Assembly (NCBI GenBank): GCA_964016885.1
Contig: OZ024741.1
Coordinates: forward strand, 70,804,001-70,868,000
Reading direction: 5' to 3'
Length of the DNA: 64,000 bases
DNA from: Eledone cirrhosa
Taxonomy: Eukaryota
Below, one piece after another: positions 5,319-52,770 of this stretch (position 1 is the stretch's first letter; each line of letters starts with the position of its first letter). Made by a program: the position numbers and the translations under genes. Under the pieces are notes generated by a model. That model worked only from the letters and a program-made list of their open reading frames with translations, was not told the DNA's origin and did no database searches.

Positions 5319-5914
5319 AAAGACTTTTGATGTATTGAAGGCTTCTTTGTTTTATTTTCATAATTCTTCGGCTCTGTTTAATTACATTGAGCTATACCTT
5401 TTACTGACATTTCTATAATACGAAGAGGGTGTTTAACTCCAACATGATCCAGTATTTTAATCCATATATATATATATATACATATATATATACATATATA
5501 TATATACATATTGTTATATTTGGGGAGGGTCATATTTGCGTAATATTGCCAGAATTAATAACAGAACACACTCACTGTTTGGTTGGTTTTCGCTTCTCGC
5601 ATATACATATATCTATATAAACATATACATATACATATATCTATATATACATATATATATACATATATATATATATACATATATATATATATATATACAT
5701 ATATATATATATATACATATATATATATATATACATATATATATATATATATACATATATATATATATATATACACACATAAATATATATACATATATAT
5801 ATACATACATATATATACACATATATATATATACATATATATACATACATATATATATATACATATATATATACATACATATATATACACATATATATAC
5901 ACACATATATACAT

Positions 5915-6360
5915 AAATATAGTATTAAGGATACTATTTATGGTTATGTATACAATAAAACCTTTTATGGTTATATATATTTTAAACCCTAAATAGTGAA
6001 AGACAGTAATTCATTACTATCTTATTACCAGTAAGATAAATAGCTCAATGTAATAACATCAGTTGTTTTACAGAGCAGTTATATAGAAATTACATTAATC
6101 AAAGTTCAGTTTAAATCATTTATTTGCTTACAATTGTTTCCTCCAAACCGAGGTTTGGATTCTTCGGAGCAACTATTTAGTGATTTATAACATACTTGAC
6201 CTCCTTTTCAACACAAGAGACATATAAAAACATATGTATATATTGACCCACAGTGGGTTGACATCACTCATAATGATATAGCATGGCAATTTACATATAA
6301 GGGTTAAAGGACAAAATTAAAGTTAAAATTAAAATAAAAATTAAAATAAAACATTGGCAG
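5915..6360 (-). mobile_element. PLE 3'-end (pseudo-LTR) fragment, tail-to-tail with PLE-1
   Basis: Minus-strand hammerhead plus AATAAA plus ACATTGAGCTA (6041-6051), identical to the motif in PLE-1; ends in (TA)n. Confidence 0.7.
6124..6172 (-). ncRNA. Type I hammerhead ribozyme, U4C core variant
   Basis: Minus strand: ttgct CCGAAGA a-tccaaac-ctcg-gtttgga-g GAAA caattg TA agcaa; perfect stems I and II, palindromic stem III. Confidence 0.85.
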
Positions 6361-6498
6361 TTTATGAAGATAAAGCAGGACATGGGGACAGAGACCGCTG
6401 GAGAGAACTCGTCCATGGATCTCGGGAATTTTACCCGCCTTAGATATATATATATATATATGTATATATATGTATATATATATATGTATATATATATA

Positions 6499-6847
6499 TC
6501 ATCATCATCATCATCATCATTTCATTTTACGTCCGTTTTTCCCTGCTTGCAAGGGTGGGACGGGAACTGATTCTGGCTTAATTTCTACAGCCGGATGCCC
6601 TTCCTAACACCAACCTCATTTACAGTGAGTGCTGGGTGCTTTTTTGCTGTGGCACCTCCACGACCACTTTGCAGTGGAATGATAGGGACCCCAGTCCCTA
6701 TCATCTCATTTCTACAGCTGAGTAAACTGGAGCAATGTGAAATAAAGTGTCTTGCTCAAGGAAACAACACATCACCCGGTCTGAGAATTGAACTCACAAC
6801 CTTTCGATTACAAGGCCAATGCTCTAACCACTAAGCCATGTGCCTCC
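6499..6847 (-). mobile_element. tRNA-derived CORE-type SINE with RTE-derived 3' tail
   Basis: A box TGGCTTAGTGG, B box GAGTTCAATTC, CORE-like CCTTGAGCAAGACACTT..CAGTTTACTCAGCTGTAGAAATG, (GAT)n tail; second copy at 62729-63172. Confidence 0.88.
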
Positions 6848-7124
6848 ATTAATATATATGTATATATATACATATATATATATATACATATACATATATA
6901 TATATACATATATATACATATATATATATATATATATACATATATATATATATATACATATATATATATATACATACATATATATATATATATACATATA
7001 TATATATATACATACATATACATATATATATATACATATATATATATATACATATATATATATATGTATATATATATATGTTTCTATATGTAAATATATG
7101 TATCATCATCATCATTCATCATCC

Positions 7125-7760
7125 CCTCTCTACCTATCTCTCTCTACATCCATTACACTCTCTCTCTCTCACCTTTGACCTACCTCCCTCTCAACATCTA
7201 TGAACCTGCCCTCTGGGGCAATAAATAATTCCGACCTTAACTATCAACGCATCTCTCCAAAAGTAACCAGTATAATATAACCCCTACCATAACATTTTGA
7301 TTAAGATATCTACAAGCCACTCTCTCCTACTTCTCCAACCCCTGCATATCTTTCTTTCTCTCTCCCTCTTCCCTACTTTTCTCTCTTCCTGTTCTACTCT
7401 ATCTTCCCCAACAACCCCACTTAAGGGTATTTACATTGTACATTTACCATTCTGCTCTGAGGCAACAGTGGTCACAGCATTGGATATTCGAGTTCTGCAA
7501 GTACTTGTCAATTTGCACGTAGCGTAACTAGGCTGCAGTACCACCGTGGAAATACTTGTAAGCACACGGAATAAATTACCTTTTTATGATGTCTACCTGT
7601 TATTATTCATTCTTTATATACACTCCGGAATACTGAAGGATCAGAAACTAAGTTTCTTGAACAATTCTTCCATAACTCGTAGAGTAACCTCTTACCGTAC
7701 GTCAACCATATCCAGTGTAGTAATTAACCATTACTACATCTTGGATAATCCTATACCTAA
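7125..7760 (+). mobile_element. PLE 3'-end fragment with hammerhead
   Basis: Pyrimidine-rich UTR, hammerhead-like fold at 7453-7564, AATAAA at ~7570, GTAGAGTAAC motif at ~7679, then (TA)n. Confidence 0.6.
7453..7564 (+). ncRNA. Hammerhead-like motif with enlarged stem II (core A9 reads C)
   Basis: tgct CTGAGGC a-acagtggt...accaccgt-g GAAA tacttg TA agca; stem II region ~85 nt. Confidence 0.6.
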
Positions 7761-49640: not shown

Positions 49641-50373
49641 TAATAATTATAACATCAATAATTAATAGGAATAATTCCTAACAGAAGGACAGACATTTAG
49701 TGGGGAAGAAACAGTCAATTAAATTGATTCCAGCACATGACTTGTACTTAATTTTATTGATCCTAGAAAGATAAGTTGAGACTAATGCCAACAATTTTGC
49801 AGAGTGTACTCAGTGCATTTTATCTTAGCACCAGCACTAGAAAAGTTGTCTTGTTTTTAACATGGCTAAAGACTCCTCATCCTTTTAGGGCATGGGTTCT
49901 ATGACTGGATACCCTTCTTTTGCCAACTTTTTTGCAGAGTATATTTATTTACAACACTGATATTCATATAGACTTAGCTGTGACATGACCAATGCACCAT
50001 ACATTCTCAATTACTTGTTAGTGCATACTTGTTTGAGTACACATATTAAAGAATAAAGAAAAGGAAAGGAGCCAATCCTCAGATTGGACCAAGGAAACAA
50101 AGTTTCAATTGATATTTCTATTACTATTACTATCTGCCAGTCATCAGATCAGACCAAGGAAACAAGGTTTCCATTAATCTTTCCATTGCTGATACTATTT
50201 GCCAGTCACAACTCCTGGCAGAAGTAGGCAGGGTTTGAACTCAGAATGCACAGATCCAGATTAAATACTGTAAATCCTCTTGTTGGATTCTTTAACAATT
50301 CCATGAATAAGAGAAAGACAAAAATGTATTTGAAAATCAATGGAGATGAGATATAAATGAGGAGCCTACTTAC

Positions 50374-50435
50374 GCAATTGACTTTTTAACTTCTAGTAGA
50401 TTATTTTTAGGTATTGTCCGTATTGGAGACAGAGA
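50374..50435 (-). CDS. PLEKHA1: PLEKHA1/2-like exon (SLSPIRTIPKNNLLEVKKSI+)
   Basis: ttttcttttccag acceptor, gtaagt donor, 62 bp, phase 0 to 2, complementing the next 64-bp exon; resembles EPLRVIPLKEV. Confidence 0.9.
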
Positions 50436-50829
50436 CTGGAAAAGAAAATGGTAGACATGAAACAGAGAGAGTGAAAAACAGAGAAGAGTGGGAGTTTCTG
50501 AAAGATATGGTAGCAGGAGAGAGTAAGGGAGATGAATGAGATAGAGTGTGACTGAAAGAAAAGGTAATAGAAGTGAGAGAGAGAAAGAGTAAAACAAATA
50601 AGAAAGAGAGTAAAAGAGACAGAGAGAGGAAAAAATAGTAGCAGAGGTGTGTGTGTGTGTGAGAGAGAGAGAGAGGAAGAGAGAGAGAGAAACAGACAAA
50701 TATAGAGGCAGAGTGACAGTCAGAAATAGAGAGTAAGGAGATATTTATGGAAGTATAACATCAGAAGTAATAAACATAACAAAATGACACATATGTGCAT
50801 GTATGTGTGTATATGTATACATGCATATA

Positions 50830-52380
50830 TCCCGCTCGATTATCTGGTGGGCCCTTAGAAAACTAGGTGTTGATGAATGGATTGTGAGAGCTATACAAGC
50901 CATGTATAAAGAAACAGTCAGCAAGATTAGAATTAACAACGAATACAGTAAGAGTTTAGCATAAAAGTTGGTGTTCATCAGGGCTCCGTCCTTAGCCCCC
51001 CTACTATTTATTATTGCCCTTCAGGCTATAACAGAGGAGTTCAAGACCGGCTGCCCATGGGAACTTCTATACGCAGATGATCTAACGCTCATAGCTGAAT
51101 CAATGGCTGAACTAGAGAAGAAATTCCAAACATGGAAGCATGGCCTAGAATCAAAAGGACTTGAAATTAACCTGTCTAAGATTAAAGTTCTAGTTTGTAG
51201 GAAGGAAAATAGTGCACTGGTCCCATCTGGGAAATGGCCATGCTCAGTGTGTAGGAAAGGAGTAGGCAGAAACTCCATTTTATGTCCCAAATGCAAAGTA
51301 TGGGTGCATAAAAGATGTAGTGGGATCACAGATAAGCTAACTAAGAATATAGATTTTATATGTGGCCGGTGCTCAGGTGCAATAAGTAGCAGCAAATGCC
51401 CACAGATGATTCTATAGAAATAGTGGATAGCTTCCGTTACCTGGGTGACAAAATCAGCAGTGGGGGAGGGTGCTCTGAAAGTACAGTAGCTAGAGTCAGA
51501 ACTGGATGGAAAAAGTTCCGAGAGCTTATACCACTATTGGCCACTAAAGGGTTCTCTCTAAAAATGAAAGGCAGGCTGTATGATGCCTGCATACGAACAG
51601 CAATGTTACATGGCAGTGATACCTGGGCCTTGTGTGCAGAGGATATACGCAGACTGAAAAGGAACGAAGCTTGCATGCTCCGTTGGATGTGAAATAGTAA
51701 TATACGTGAACGGCAAAGCATAAATTAACTATGGGAGAAATTAGGAATAAGAGGAATCAGATGTTGTTTACTCGAGAGAAGACTATGTTGGTATGGTCAT
51801 GTGATGCGCATGAAATACAACAGCTGTATAAAAAAGTGCAGGGCAATCAAAATAGATGGTAGCCACAGAGTAGGCAGACCCAGAAAAACCTGGGACTTGA
51901 TAAATTCCGACCTCACACACTTACACCTCTCCAAGACAATGTCACTGGACCGAGATCTTTGGCGCTACACAGTAATACAGAAGACCCACCTTGCCTAAGT
52001 ACAAAGCGAAACCTACAGTCAGTAGGCACCTCTAACAAAAATACACCCCCGTCCCACCACTCCCACCCCATCCACACCACCCCTTTCGATGAAAAGTTAT
52101 GTTGGTACCACAACATCCAGTCCGAAATAAATGAGGTCGTGTAGGTGTCACGGAAAAAAAAAAAAACACAGTCCACGCTGTAATGTGGCCGTGTAGGTAA
52201 CACGGTAAAAACCTCCCAGTCCACACTGTAAACGTGGTTGGTGATAGGAAGGGCATCCAGCCGTAGAAAACCTGCCAGACAGTCCTACACGAGCAAGACA
52301 ACCAATCTTGCCTCAAGTGGGAAAACTCCCGTCCAAACCCATGCAAACATGGAAGATGGACGTTAAACGATGATGATGAT
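50830..52380 (+). mobile_element. RTE-clade LINE, 5'-truncated, decayed
   Basis: Close paralog of 22224-23980 and 46157-48515; (GAT)n tail. Confidence 0.94.
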
Positions 52381-52561
52381 ATATGCATATATATATATAT
52401 ATATATATTTATATATATATATATATATATATATATATATATATAAAGAGAGAGAAAGAGAGTTGAAGGAGACAACAAACAAGTACAAAAAGTCTTATTA
52501 ATTTCACGCTTTATATTGGAAAGAGGAAAGAAAGTTCGTGTCAGACCTAATATATATAAAT

Positions 52562-52770
52562 ATATTTATTTTATTAAGGCTAAATAGTGAGTCTTGTTAC
52601 TCTGGAGTTTTGCCTGCTTCTCACAGAGTCATCAGACAAGAACCTCTGAGAAGCAGGCAAAACTCCAGAGTAACAAGACTCACTGTTTAGCCTTAATGAA
52701 ATGAATATTTAAACTCCACTTTGGTATTGAGTACTCTTTTTTCTCAGACGTCAACTACATATGGATACAT
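52562..52770. mobile_element. Fold-back hammerhead element, copy 2
   Basis: Paralog of 33129-33310 with the same junction tcatcagacaagaacct; minus-strand hammerhead 52592-52641 (AAAA for GAAA); GTATTGAGTACT at 52724. Confidence 0.85.

Follow-up and report, generated by a model that had tools for sequence, protein, structure and literature searches.

Paired bulged hairpins in Hydra-type Penelope-like elements of Eledone cirrhosa and their putative role in setting element ends

Penelope-like elements at the locus

The window, that is, the whole 64,000-nt stretch of DNA analysed here, contains Penelope-like elements (PLEs). The PLE-1 ORF (1303–3629, plus strand) is 5′-truncated, with a frameshift near 3190, and encodes a reverse transcriptase (RT) that has at its C-terminus an endonuclease (EN) domain of the GIY-YIG type, the C-terminal frame matching PF01541 (GIY-YIG) at E 1.5e-4, just under the cut-off. 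The PLE-2 ORF (18328–20769, minus strand) is intact and encodes 813 aa from its ATG, including DKT and CxCx5C motifs; it has no Pfam match, and its C-terminus aligns to the GIY-YIG region of PLE-1. Intact copies of the PLE-2 family are numerous, and R37, R167, R194, R438, R579 and R581 of the PLE-2 protein are conserved arginines. DKT takes the place of DKG in PLE-2 and most families, with DKS in a few, and the CxCx5C linker between RT and EN is present in PLE-2 and three other families. The EN of the Hydra clade is described as lacking the CCHH motif; a conserved C-C-C-H set was seen in EN here, in a comparison made without canonical PLE ENs. The best matches of the predicted protein model are TERTs. 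A minimal hammerhead core lies in the pLTR of PLE-1 (5280–5305, plus), 65 nt upstream of the hairpin described below, and PLE-2 has a hammerhead with a long stem II insert (14501–14632, minus). Insertion is at (TA)n.

By these sequence features, the host elements are Hydra-type Penelope-like retrotransposons. They share with the Hydra clade, as described in the available text of Craig et al. (2021; bioRxiv 10.1101/2021.04.23.441226, PMC8557442), the C-terminal GIY-YIG domain, DKT, the CxCx5C linker, hammerheads, (TA)n insertion and inverted arms with a one-sided tail. In contrast, the PLE-2 unit is ~6.7 kb long, against under 3 kb as published for that clade.

A bulged stem behind the motif

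The sequence-only reading had reported a short motif, RYATTGAGTRCT or GTAGAGTRCT, at twelve termini. The former is exact at 31971, 33277, 35227 and 52724 and the latter at 31755 (listed as 31754) and 35370(–), so that an exact match to the consensus holds for only 6 of the 12 listed sites, while the core T-N-GAG-Y is present at all 13 coordinates quoted; the family of 35227 predominates among the listed sites. The enrichment itself is not due to chance. Genome-wide, RYATTGAGTRCT occurs 76,936 times versus 1,478 for the reversed control. With (TA)5 30–60 nt downstream there are 29,748 matches on the plus strand versus 97 for the control; the minus-strand count is inflated by repeat matches. Of the 26 motif matches in 79 stretches (790 kb) chosen by round coordinates, 21 are followed by (TA)n after 40–69 nt, whereas none of the 26 reverse-complement matches is; the hexamer TWGAGY by itself shows next to no enrichment at this distance (91 vs 74).

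The motif proved to be no more than one side, the 3′ strand, of a stem with a bulge, NCTC-Y..loop..R-T(T/C/A)-GAGY, the two strands being separated by 6 to 108 nt. Reading it as a linear DNA word had missed both this partner strand and a second copy of the hairpin. The full stem is present at 9 of the 12 listed sites and with one mismatch at two more (31971 and 52724). The remaining site, 30138, forms a plain hairpin without the bulge, its sole relative lacks the motif, and it was rejected as looking like a chance match. A scan of the window for RCTC-NNN..N′N′N′-TW-GAGY returned nine sites, every one at a previously listed position, compared with a shuffle mean of 2.1 (maximum 5 in 30) and one in the reversed window. 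With a covariance model (R1), 11 matches were obtained at E up to 5; nine of them were listed sites, and five had been part of its training set. Near (TA)n, a 2-nt bulge is preferred (83, vs 13–22 for lengths of 1, 3, 4 and 5, and 47 for 0), and this preference is flat away from (TA)n. The minimum-energy fold coincides with the bulged fold in only 7 of 11 window stretches.

In an alignment (A3) whose rows were selected for carrying the motif, 98.6% of cells are paired, double changes number 19 versus 4.1 in shuffled data, and CTC/GAG and the bulged T are invariant in 58 of 58 rows. The second bulge base is T, C or A, and the pair just before the bulge is C-G in 43 rows, U-A in 13, U-G in one and other in one. 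The fourth outer pair is mismatched in 5 of 17 families.

The stems at the listed sites span 5371–5392 (plus; 3′ pLTR of PLE-1, compared with the read-through copy L199), 6043–6076 (minus; another family), 7622–7685 (plus; long inner helix), 20855–20935 (plus; PLE-2), 31710–31761 (plus; (TA)n 58 nt downstream), 31930–31979 (plus; one inner mismatch, sister copies being fully paired), 33266–33285 (plus; TTCG, i.e. UUCG, tetraloop), 34933–34951 (plus; hammerhead 42 nt before, in a short two-armed insertion), 35212–35235 (plus), 35397–35373 (minus) and 52713–52732 (plus; worn, one mismatch). The last shares a family with 33266, and the statement that surrounding sequence does not align is therefore wrong for 33277 and 52724. 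A full hammerhead core precedes only 3 of these 11 sites, 91, 153 and 66 nt before the stem; the claimed distance of 30–120 nt downstream of the hammerhead thus held for two of the three. An Rfam scan gave nothing at gathering score among the best 150 of 285 matches, a list swamped by matches of (TA)n to miRNA families, and no earlier description of such a hairpin pair was found in the literature.

Two copies and the position of element ends

The hairpin occurs in two copies between the hammerhead and the ATG of Hydra-type PLEs, copy 1 being the upstream one; all eleven stems located in the window are copy 1. With ORF starts picked by protein-coding pattern, blind to the motif, T-N-GAG-Y lies within 70 nt of the ATG at 62 of 69 loci and in 21 of 22 families of this genome (shuffle null 6.7%), and a second T-N-GAG-Y is found 55–200 nt upstream in 18 of the 22. 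The inner triplet of this upstream copy is paired in 14 of 18 families (permutation mean 6.3, p 5e-5). Among marine metagenome contigs, the 3′ strand of copy 2 is present in 26 of 29 families (null 9.7%) and both copies in 16 of the 24 with enough flank (null 3.0%); the inner pair of copy 1 is T-A in 9 and C-G in 8 (n = 19, p 0.0006). These permutation p-values overstate independence because the families are related. Reverse-strand controls are high (11/69 loci in this genome, 13/29 metagenome families), probably since the pattern is also satisfied by the 5′ strand when this is read in reverse. In almost every family 10–60 nt separate the ATG from the end of copy 2, which often has only 1–2 inner pairs; for copy 1 the distance to the ATG reaches 285 nt. 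The carrier elements share only 28–43% protein identity, and yet the hairpin of about 20 nt is conserved. None of three folds of the twin region formed both hairpins as drawn. A viral scan and a first metagenome scan found nothing; the motif is absent from an abundant tandem hammerhead family, and the legible part of the Poseidon RNA piece in supplement 1 of PMC11167929 contains no CUC, so the hairpin is not universal to PLEs.

The supposed variant at 20796–20807 (minus) is the 3′ strand of copy 2 of PLE-2. The 5′ strand of that copy was removed here by the inversion junction; of 30 fetched family copies, 28 have it upstream. A candidate 5′ UTR intron (GT..AG) ending at this site was rejected, as its removal would disrupt copy 2 and it covers a stretch predicted to fold as a hairpin.

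We mapped 187 (TA)n-joined ends, 64 of them from one family and many at loci that were targeted, not random; family f5 was left out, its query having held a TA tract. Eighty ends lie before copy 1, 86 before copy 2 and 21 elsewhere; the 166 ends at the copies are 3–11 nt ahead of one or the other, within two 9-nt windows with a uniform expectation of 7%. Both end types occur in 15 of 18 families. Two-armed insertions have one arm at each copy in 39 of 45 cases and both at the same copy in none of the 45. Junction template bases are A/T-rich, with A/T-rich microhomology at every junction. This fixed end-to-motif distance supports two suggestions of the sequence-only reading, namely that the motif belongs to an unannotated PLE cis-element and that it is an RT or endonuclease recognition site.

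The window itself illustrates the rule. PLE-1 ends at 5461, 8 nt short of the expected start of copy 2, and the element with the hairpin at 7622–7685 ends at 7762, 7 nt before the copy 2 position; a read-through relative (L166) of the element at 6043–6076 has copy 2 just beyond the end. PLE-2 is a two-armed insertion, the long arm of which (14434–20840, minus) has its 3′ end at 14434, 7 nt before the copy 1 position, whereas the terminus of the short arm (20841–20987), which holds copy 1, lies 8 nt before the copy 2 position. L1-like twin priming for this inversion is superseded by the rule of ends before copy 1 and copy 2. In a two-armed insertion of the most abundant family (35086–35289), the plus arm holds copy 1 (35212–35235) and ends 6 nt before the copy 2 position, and the minus arm ends 8 nt before the copy 1 position. 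Conversely, in a two-armed truncated PLE (35312–36895) the minus arm holds copy 1 (35397–35373) and ends 6 nt before the copy 2 position, with the plus arm ending 5 nt before the copy 1 position. As predicted, read-through copies of the 35227 family show copy 2 at 6 nt beyond the end, in 380 matches versus 0 for the control, followed 65 nt later by an ORF. Only 11 of 29 metagenome self-matches end 0–5 nt before copy 2; the rest stop where a contig does, close to copy 1 or at other places. Ends beyond copy 2 on its downstream side were considered and rejected, amounting to only 35 overlapping matches at 9 places. The tail, from copy 1 to copy 2, measures 78–172 nt, compared with 30–40 nt as published for the Hydra clade.

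Putative mechanism and comparison with known systems

From the sequence patterns above, we propose an answer to how PLEs choose internal RT starts and come by inverted, one-tailed ends: with a probability of roughly three in four, two putative protein-bound RNA hairpins position RT starts on both target strands and thereby generate the Penelope tail. A read-through transcript would hold both hairpins, which would be bound by the element protein, probably as a dimer. The GIY-YIG domain would nick both strands of (TA)n, and each DNA 3′ end would pair with the AU-rich stretch immediately 5′ of one hairpin and be extended away from it. Head-to-head joining of the two cDNAs would follow; priming at copy 2 would yield the arm that carries copy 1 plus the spacer, that is, the tail. 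Since copy 2 would never be copied at an end, only tandem or read-through copies would keep both hairpins, and a start set on each DNA strand by the hairpin pair would explain the lopsided ends of these elements.

This model is reminiscent of the green anole Poseidon element PAc, which, in the available text of Frangieh et al. (2024, PMC11167929), cuts and extends both strands of an AT-rich target in vitro from two internal starts bounding the tail, requires RNA 3′ of these starts and has a protein predicted to dimerise. Unlike here, PAc belongs to a different clade and its starts lie within the ORF; the hairpin motif is not evident in the legible piece of its RNA, and a protein-binding RNA motif is there hypothesised without one being found.

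An unlikely alternative places the action of the hairpins in single-stranded DNA: in a transposition intermediate they would be recognised by the endonuclease, which would cut a few bases 5′ of each, and the ends would then mark sites of resolution instead of RT starts. Craig et al., whose available text, unlike the present work, describes no hairpin pair, attribute the tail to endonuclease-mediated resolution (PMC8557442); the D. virilis EN needed tail sequence for recognition (cited in the available text of PMC11167929), and the strand signal is weak, with 14 G-T against 7 A-C pairs near (TA)n and 10 against 4 when counted by family. However, the in vitro RT starts of PAc coincide with its genomic ends (PMC11167929, available text), and the junction template bases are A/T-rich, as for primer annealing. 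Furthermore, the invariant letters agree with a motif of the RNA major groove, and a UUCG loop, typical of RNA, closes one copy.

It is less probable still that the hairpins recruit the protein, for cis-preference or for translational autoregulation beside the start codon, with ends set by AU-rich bases alone or by structure-blocked RT. The position of copy 2 shortly before the ATG and the microhomology at every junction would suit such a role, but the whole region is A/T-rich and the ends nevertheless concentrate in the two 9-nt windows, copy 1 fixes an end even 285 nt from the ATG, and arm pairs fall strictly one per copy. That the motif serves the pLTR as a core-promoter or initiator element, as had been guessed earlier, is very improbable. 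The internal pLTR promoter of Penelope does have Inr and DPE (PMC2377424), and the ATG follows the motif at a short distance. Yet the motif forms a covarying stem together with a partner 6–108 nt upstream, is present in two copies and tracks insertion ends, none of which a double-stranded promoter word needs.

Within the preferred reading of RT starts set by RNA hairpins, recognition might, speculatively, involve a TAR-type U.A-U triple with arginine contacts. HIV TAR requires U23, G26-C39, A27-U38 and G28-C37, and its position 24 may be any base (PMC11885821, available text). As in the arginine sandwich of TAR and 7SK in the available texts (PMC11885821, PMC6189040, bioRxiv 10.1101/2022.12.05.519207), the hairpin combines a purine pair, a bulged U and a free spacer base with subsequent G-C, A-U and G-C pairs of the same polarity, its 2-nt bulge being like that of HIV-2. 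The bulged U and spacer followed by G-C/A-U/G-C are found in 58 of 58 motif-selected A3 rows, and the TAR-type Watson-Crick pair just before the bulge is present. In contrast to published TAR, the loop lies on the other side of the bulge (permuted) and closes the opposite helix, no apical loop follows the GAG pairs, a conserved unpaired RCT comes after the hairpin, and the role is not transcription elongation. A TAR element proper was thus rejected, as was a TAR topology formed by pairing between the copies, where the cross pair is C-A in 8 of 16; pairing is within each copy. The resemblance is likely convergence.

More tentatively, a TERT-related RT might prime both target strands from one RNA by means of a pair of TAR-like arginine-sandwich hairpins, each serving one protomer of a dimer. 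If true, this would be a distinct two-primer integration route, which would account for the tail, for the inverted arms and for why PLEs need tandem copies, and a living model for the origin of a defined internal RNA template in TERT-type enzymes. In practice, the hairpin of about 20 nt is a defined element with sharp mutagenesis predictions, its distance from the ends provides a rule for calling element boundaries, and it is a short RNA tag that may direct flanking RNA to copying by a TERT-related enzyme.

Two further systems are comparable in their available texts. The template boundary element of telomerase RNA (PMC4993307) is likewise a short, template-adjacent helix bound by a TERT-type RT that defines the internal RNA copied, but it lies 5′ of the template and stops synthesis, whereas the hairpins would set initiation; they sit 3′ of the element ends, and their identity with such an element was rejected. 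The 3′ stem-loop of the eel LINE UnaL2 is a bulged RNA stem near the RT start, needed for retrotransposition (PMC1636434); unlike the hairpins here, which are two, internal and 3′ of the starts, it is a single stem at the 3′ end of the transcript and is copied into the insertion.

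A bulged hairpin in two copies ahead of the ORF

Within this animal genome of 3.0 Gb, the window is (TA)n-rich and holds two ORFs of Penelope-like elements (PLEs). The sequence-only reading proposed that unrelated PLE termini share a short motif lying before the (TA)n junction. A T-N-GAG-Y core is present at all the places it quoted, and its consensus was exact at six of the 12 listed sites and inexact at the other six. The motif stands above background: the first consensus was 52-fold over the reversed control genome-wide (76,936 vs 1,478). Its placement was likewise borne out in a 790-kb sample of stretches chosen by round coordinates, where 21/26 matches lay 40–69 nt before (TA)n (reverse complement, 0/26). 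One family supplies much of both the enrichment and the placement; clustering gave many unrelated families, and it is on family counts that the claim of a common motif stands.

Sequence analysis revealed that each motif has its complement upstream, the two strands forming a bulged hairpin. Scanning the window for RCTC-NNN..N'N'N'-TW-GAGY gave nine matches, 9/9 at the previously listed sites (shuffle mean, 2.1). In 39 arbitrary stretches there were 56 matches, against 9–25 in shuffled and 29 in reversed sequence; therefore about one-third to one-half of such matches are background. Near (TA)n, a bulge of 2 nt was found 83 times, against 13–22 for other lengths and 47 without bulge, and away from (TA)n the 2-nt bulge showed no excess. 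The clustered families differ in their inner pairs, and the end distance is fixed within each.

Read-through junctions reveal a second hairpin copy near the ATG (copy 2), copy 1 lying closer to the hammerhead. In a blind test, ORF starts were collected by coding pattern (2,177 genome matches), and 69 starts from 22 families were examined. The motif 3' strand lay within 70 nt of the ATG at 62/69 starts and in 21/22 families (null, 6.7%), with NCTC 8–9 nt before the bulge at 49/69. The second inner pair of copy 2 was paired in 14/17 families (p 0.019). An additional 3' strand occurred 55–200 nt upstream in 18/22 families, and the triplet of this upstream copy was fully paired in 14/18 (permutation mean, 6.3). 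For the commonest family, copy 2 was predicted just beyond the end and was found there (380 matches; control, 0), followed by the ORF.

Insertion ends and a proposed two-strand priming model

In a first count, 49/60 (TA)n-joined ends lay 5–10 nt before copy 2. Among 187 unique ends from 18 families (one family, with a TA tract in its query, was left out), 80 sat 3–11 nt ahead of copy 1 and 86 likewise ahead of copy 2, leaving 21 at other places; uniform ends would place 7% before the copies. Two-armed insertions, whose arms meet head to head with both 3' ends at the flanks, had one end per copy in 39/45 pairs and an off-site end in 6/45. Same-type pairs were absent (0/45; about 39% expected under independence). 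In the window, such insertions span 14434–20987 (PLE-2), 35312–36895 and 35086–35289. The last is a fragment of about 200 bp from an autonomous PLE with a 3.5-kb tandem unit; this fragment, MITE- or SINE-like in behaviour, makes up the majority of listed motif matches.

Every start sits in A/T-rich bases directly 5' of a hairpin. We propose a putative model in which a cut (TA)n site primed from both strands would yield the observed arm geometry. The element protein would bind the hairpins, probably as a dimer, one RNA would template both arms, and the bulged hairpin might form a U.A-U triple. This geometry fits the anole PLE in vitro, for which PMC11167929 describes extension of both strands, two internal starts bounding the tail (extra sequence on one arm), a requirement for RNA 3' of the starts, and a predicted dimer.

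It is possible that the hairpins act instead as DNA, serving the endonuclease. The strand bias separating RNA from DNA hairpins is weak, which counts against a purely RNA reading. The bulged form is not always favoured in folding, and the helix of copy 2 is marginal. For the hairpin-primed model, a further negative is that motif and twin hairpin are absent from a retrozyme-like tandem 466–467-bp hammerhead repeat (L011 and G000:C1:5738331–5752439, outside the window), which dominates the canonical hammerhead matches listed and may use another PLE clade.

The hairpin in other organisms and among known RNA stems

Metagenome and genome collections yielded 95 loci at 28–43% identity to the query, from which 55 ORF starts could be recognised, 53 of them with ATG; these represent 29 families. 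The copy 2 3' strand was present in 26/29 families, and both copies in 16 of the 24 whose flank reached 150 nt or more, spaced 23–59 nt apart; the hammerhead is followed by copy 1 at a distance of 41–71 nt. When the 5' strand was chosen regardless of pairing, the first inner pair of copy 1 was T-A in 9/19 and C-G in 8/19. CTC/GAG and the bulge T were invariant in 58 aligned copies, all selected for having the motif, and both flanking pairs carried double changes (in 19 cells, against 4.1 after shuffling; kinship ignored). The twin hairpin is real, clade-wide and mechanistically testable. Hydra-type PLEs also occur on 17 contigs of bacterial genome bins (L298–L314), likely as host DNA carried in.

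The bases that never vary coincide with those on which TAR depends for its U.A-U triple and two arginine contacts (PMC11885821), and the second bulge base is free in both; the loop lies on the opposite side of the bulge. Cross pairing between copies, which would give the TAR topology, fails in 8/16 families. 'TAR-like' had no occurrence in literature among the matches listed. RT-recruiting RNA stems are already known, as described for UnaL2 (PMC1636434) and the telomerase TBE (PMC4993307); among them, the novelty would be a hairpin pair setting one start per strand. No description of this pair was found in the open literature searched; the supplements of Craig et al., outside the search, may bear on this. 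In the Poseidon RNA piece given in supplement 1 of PMC11167929, a stem with a UU bulge then GA is possible by eye near the start region, and CUC/GAG is absent around it by eye, making this counterpart a weak lead.

PLE-1, PLE-2 and other features of the window

The PLE-1 ORF (1303–3629, plus strand) is truncated and frameshifted; that of PLE-2 (18328–20769, minus strand) encodes 813 aa. PLE-2 contains both DKT and CxCx5C, traits of the Hydra clade according to Craig et al. Among known structures its model (pLDDT 86) comes closest to TERT, although the TM-scores are low (about 0.3). The 150 genome matches that were scored (150/150) are 99–100% identical, so the family is young, and judged from sequence it looks currently active. 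Most of these matches keep the full open frame, and some form tandem arrays at about 6.67 kb.

The PLE-2 hammerhead (14501–14632, minus strand) has stem II lengthened by about 100 nt, and long stem II arms recur in other families. A long, low-confidence Asn/Thr/Lys-rich insert follows the thumb at PLE-2 residues 482–572 and at the PLE-1 equivalent; a comparable insert has been reported in rotifer PLEs. The 108-nt inner region of PLE-2 copy 2 (L071:1354–1472, outside the window) folds as hairpins and has small-intron-like GT..AG ends.

LINE-type elements at 53499–56213 (minus strand) and 46391–47815 (plus strand) carry an AP endonuclease, an RT and, after the RT, a PHD finger. The ORF remnant at 21040–21510 (plus strand), without a Pfam match, resembles a hAT/Buster transposase C-terminus. 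At 31335–31510, a (TA)n tract is flanked by a perfect inverted repeat.
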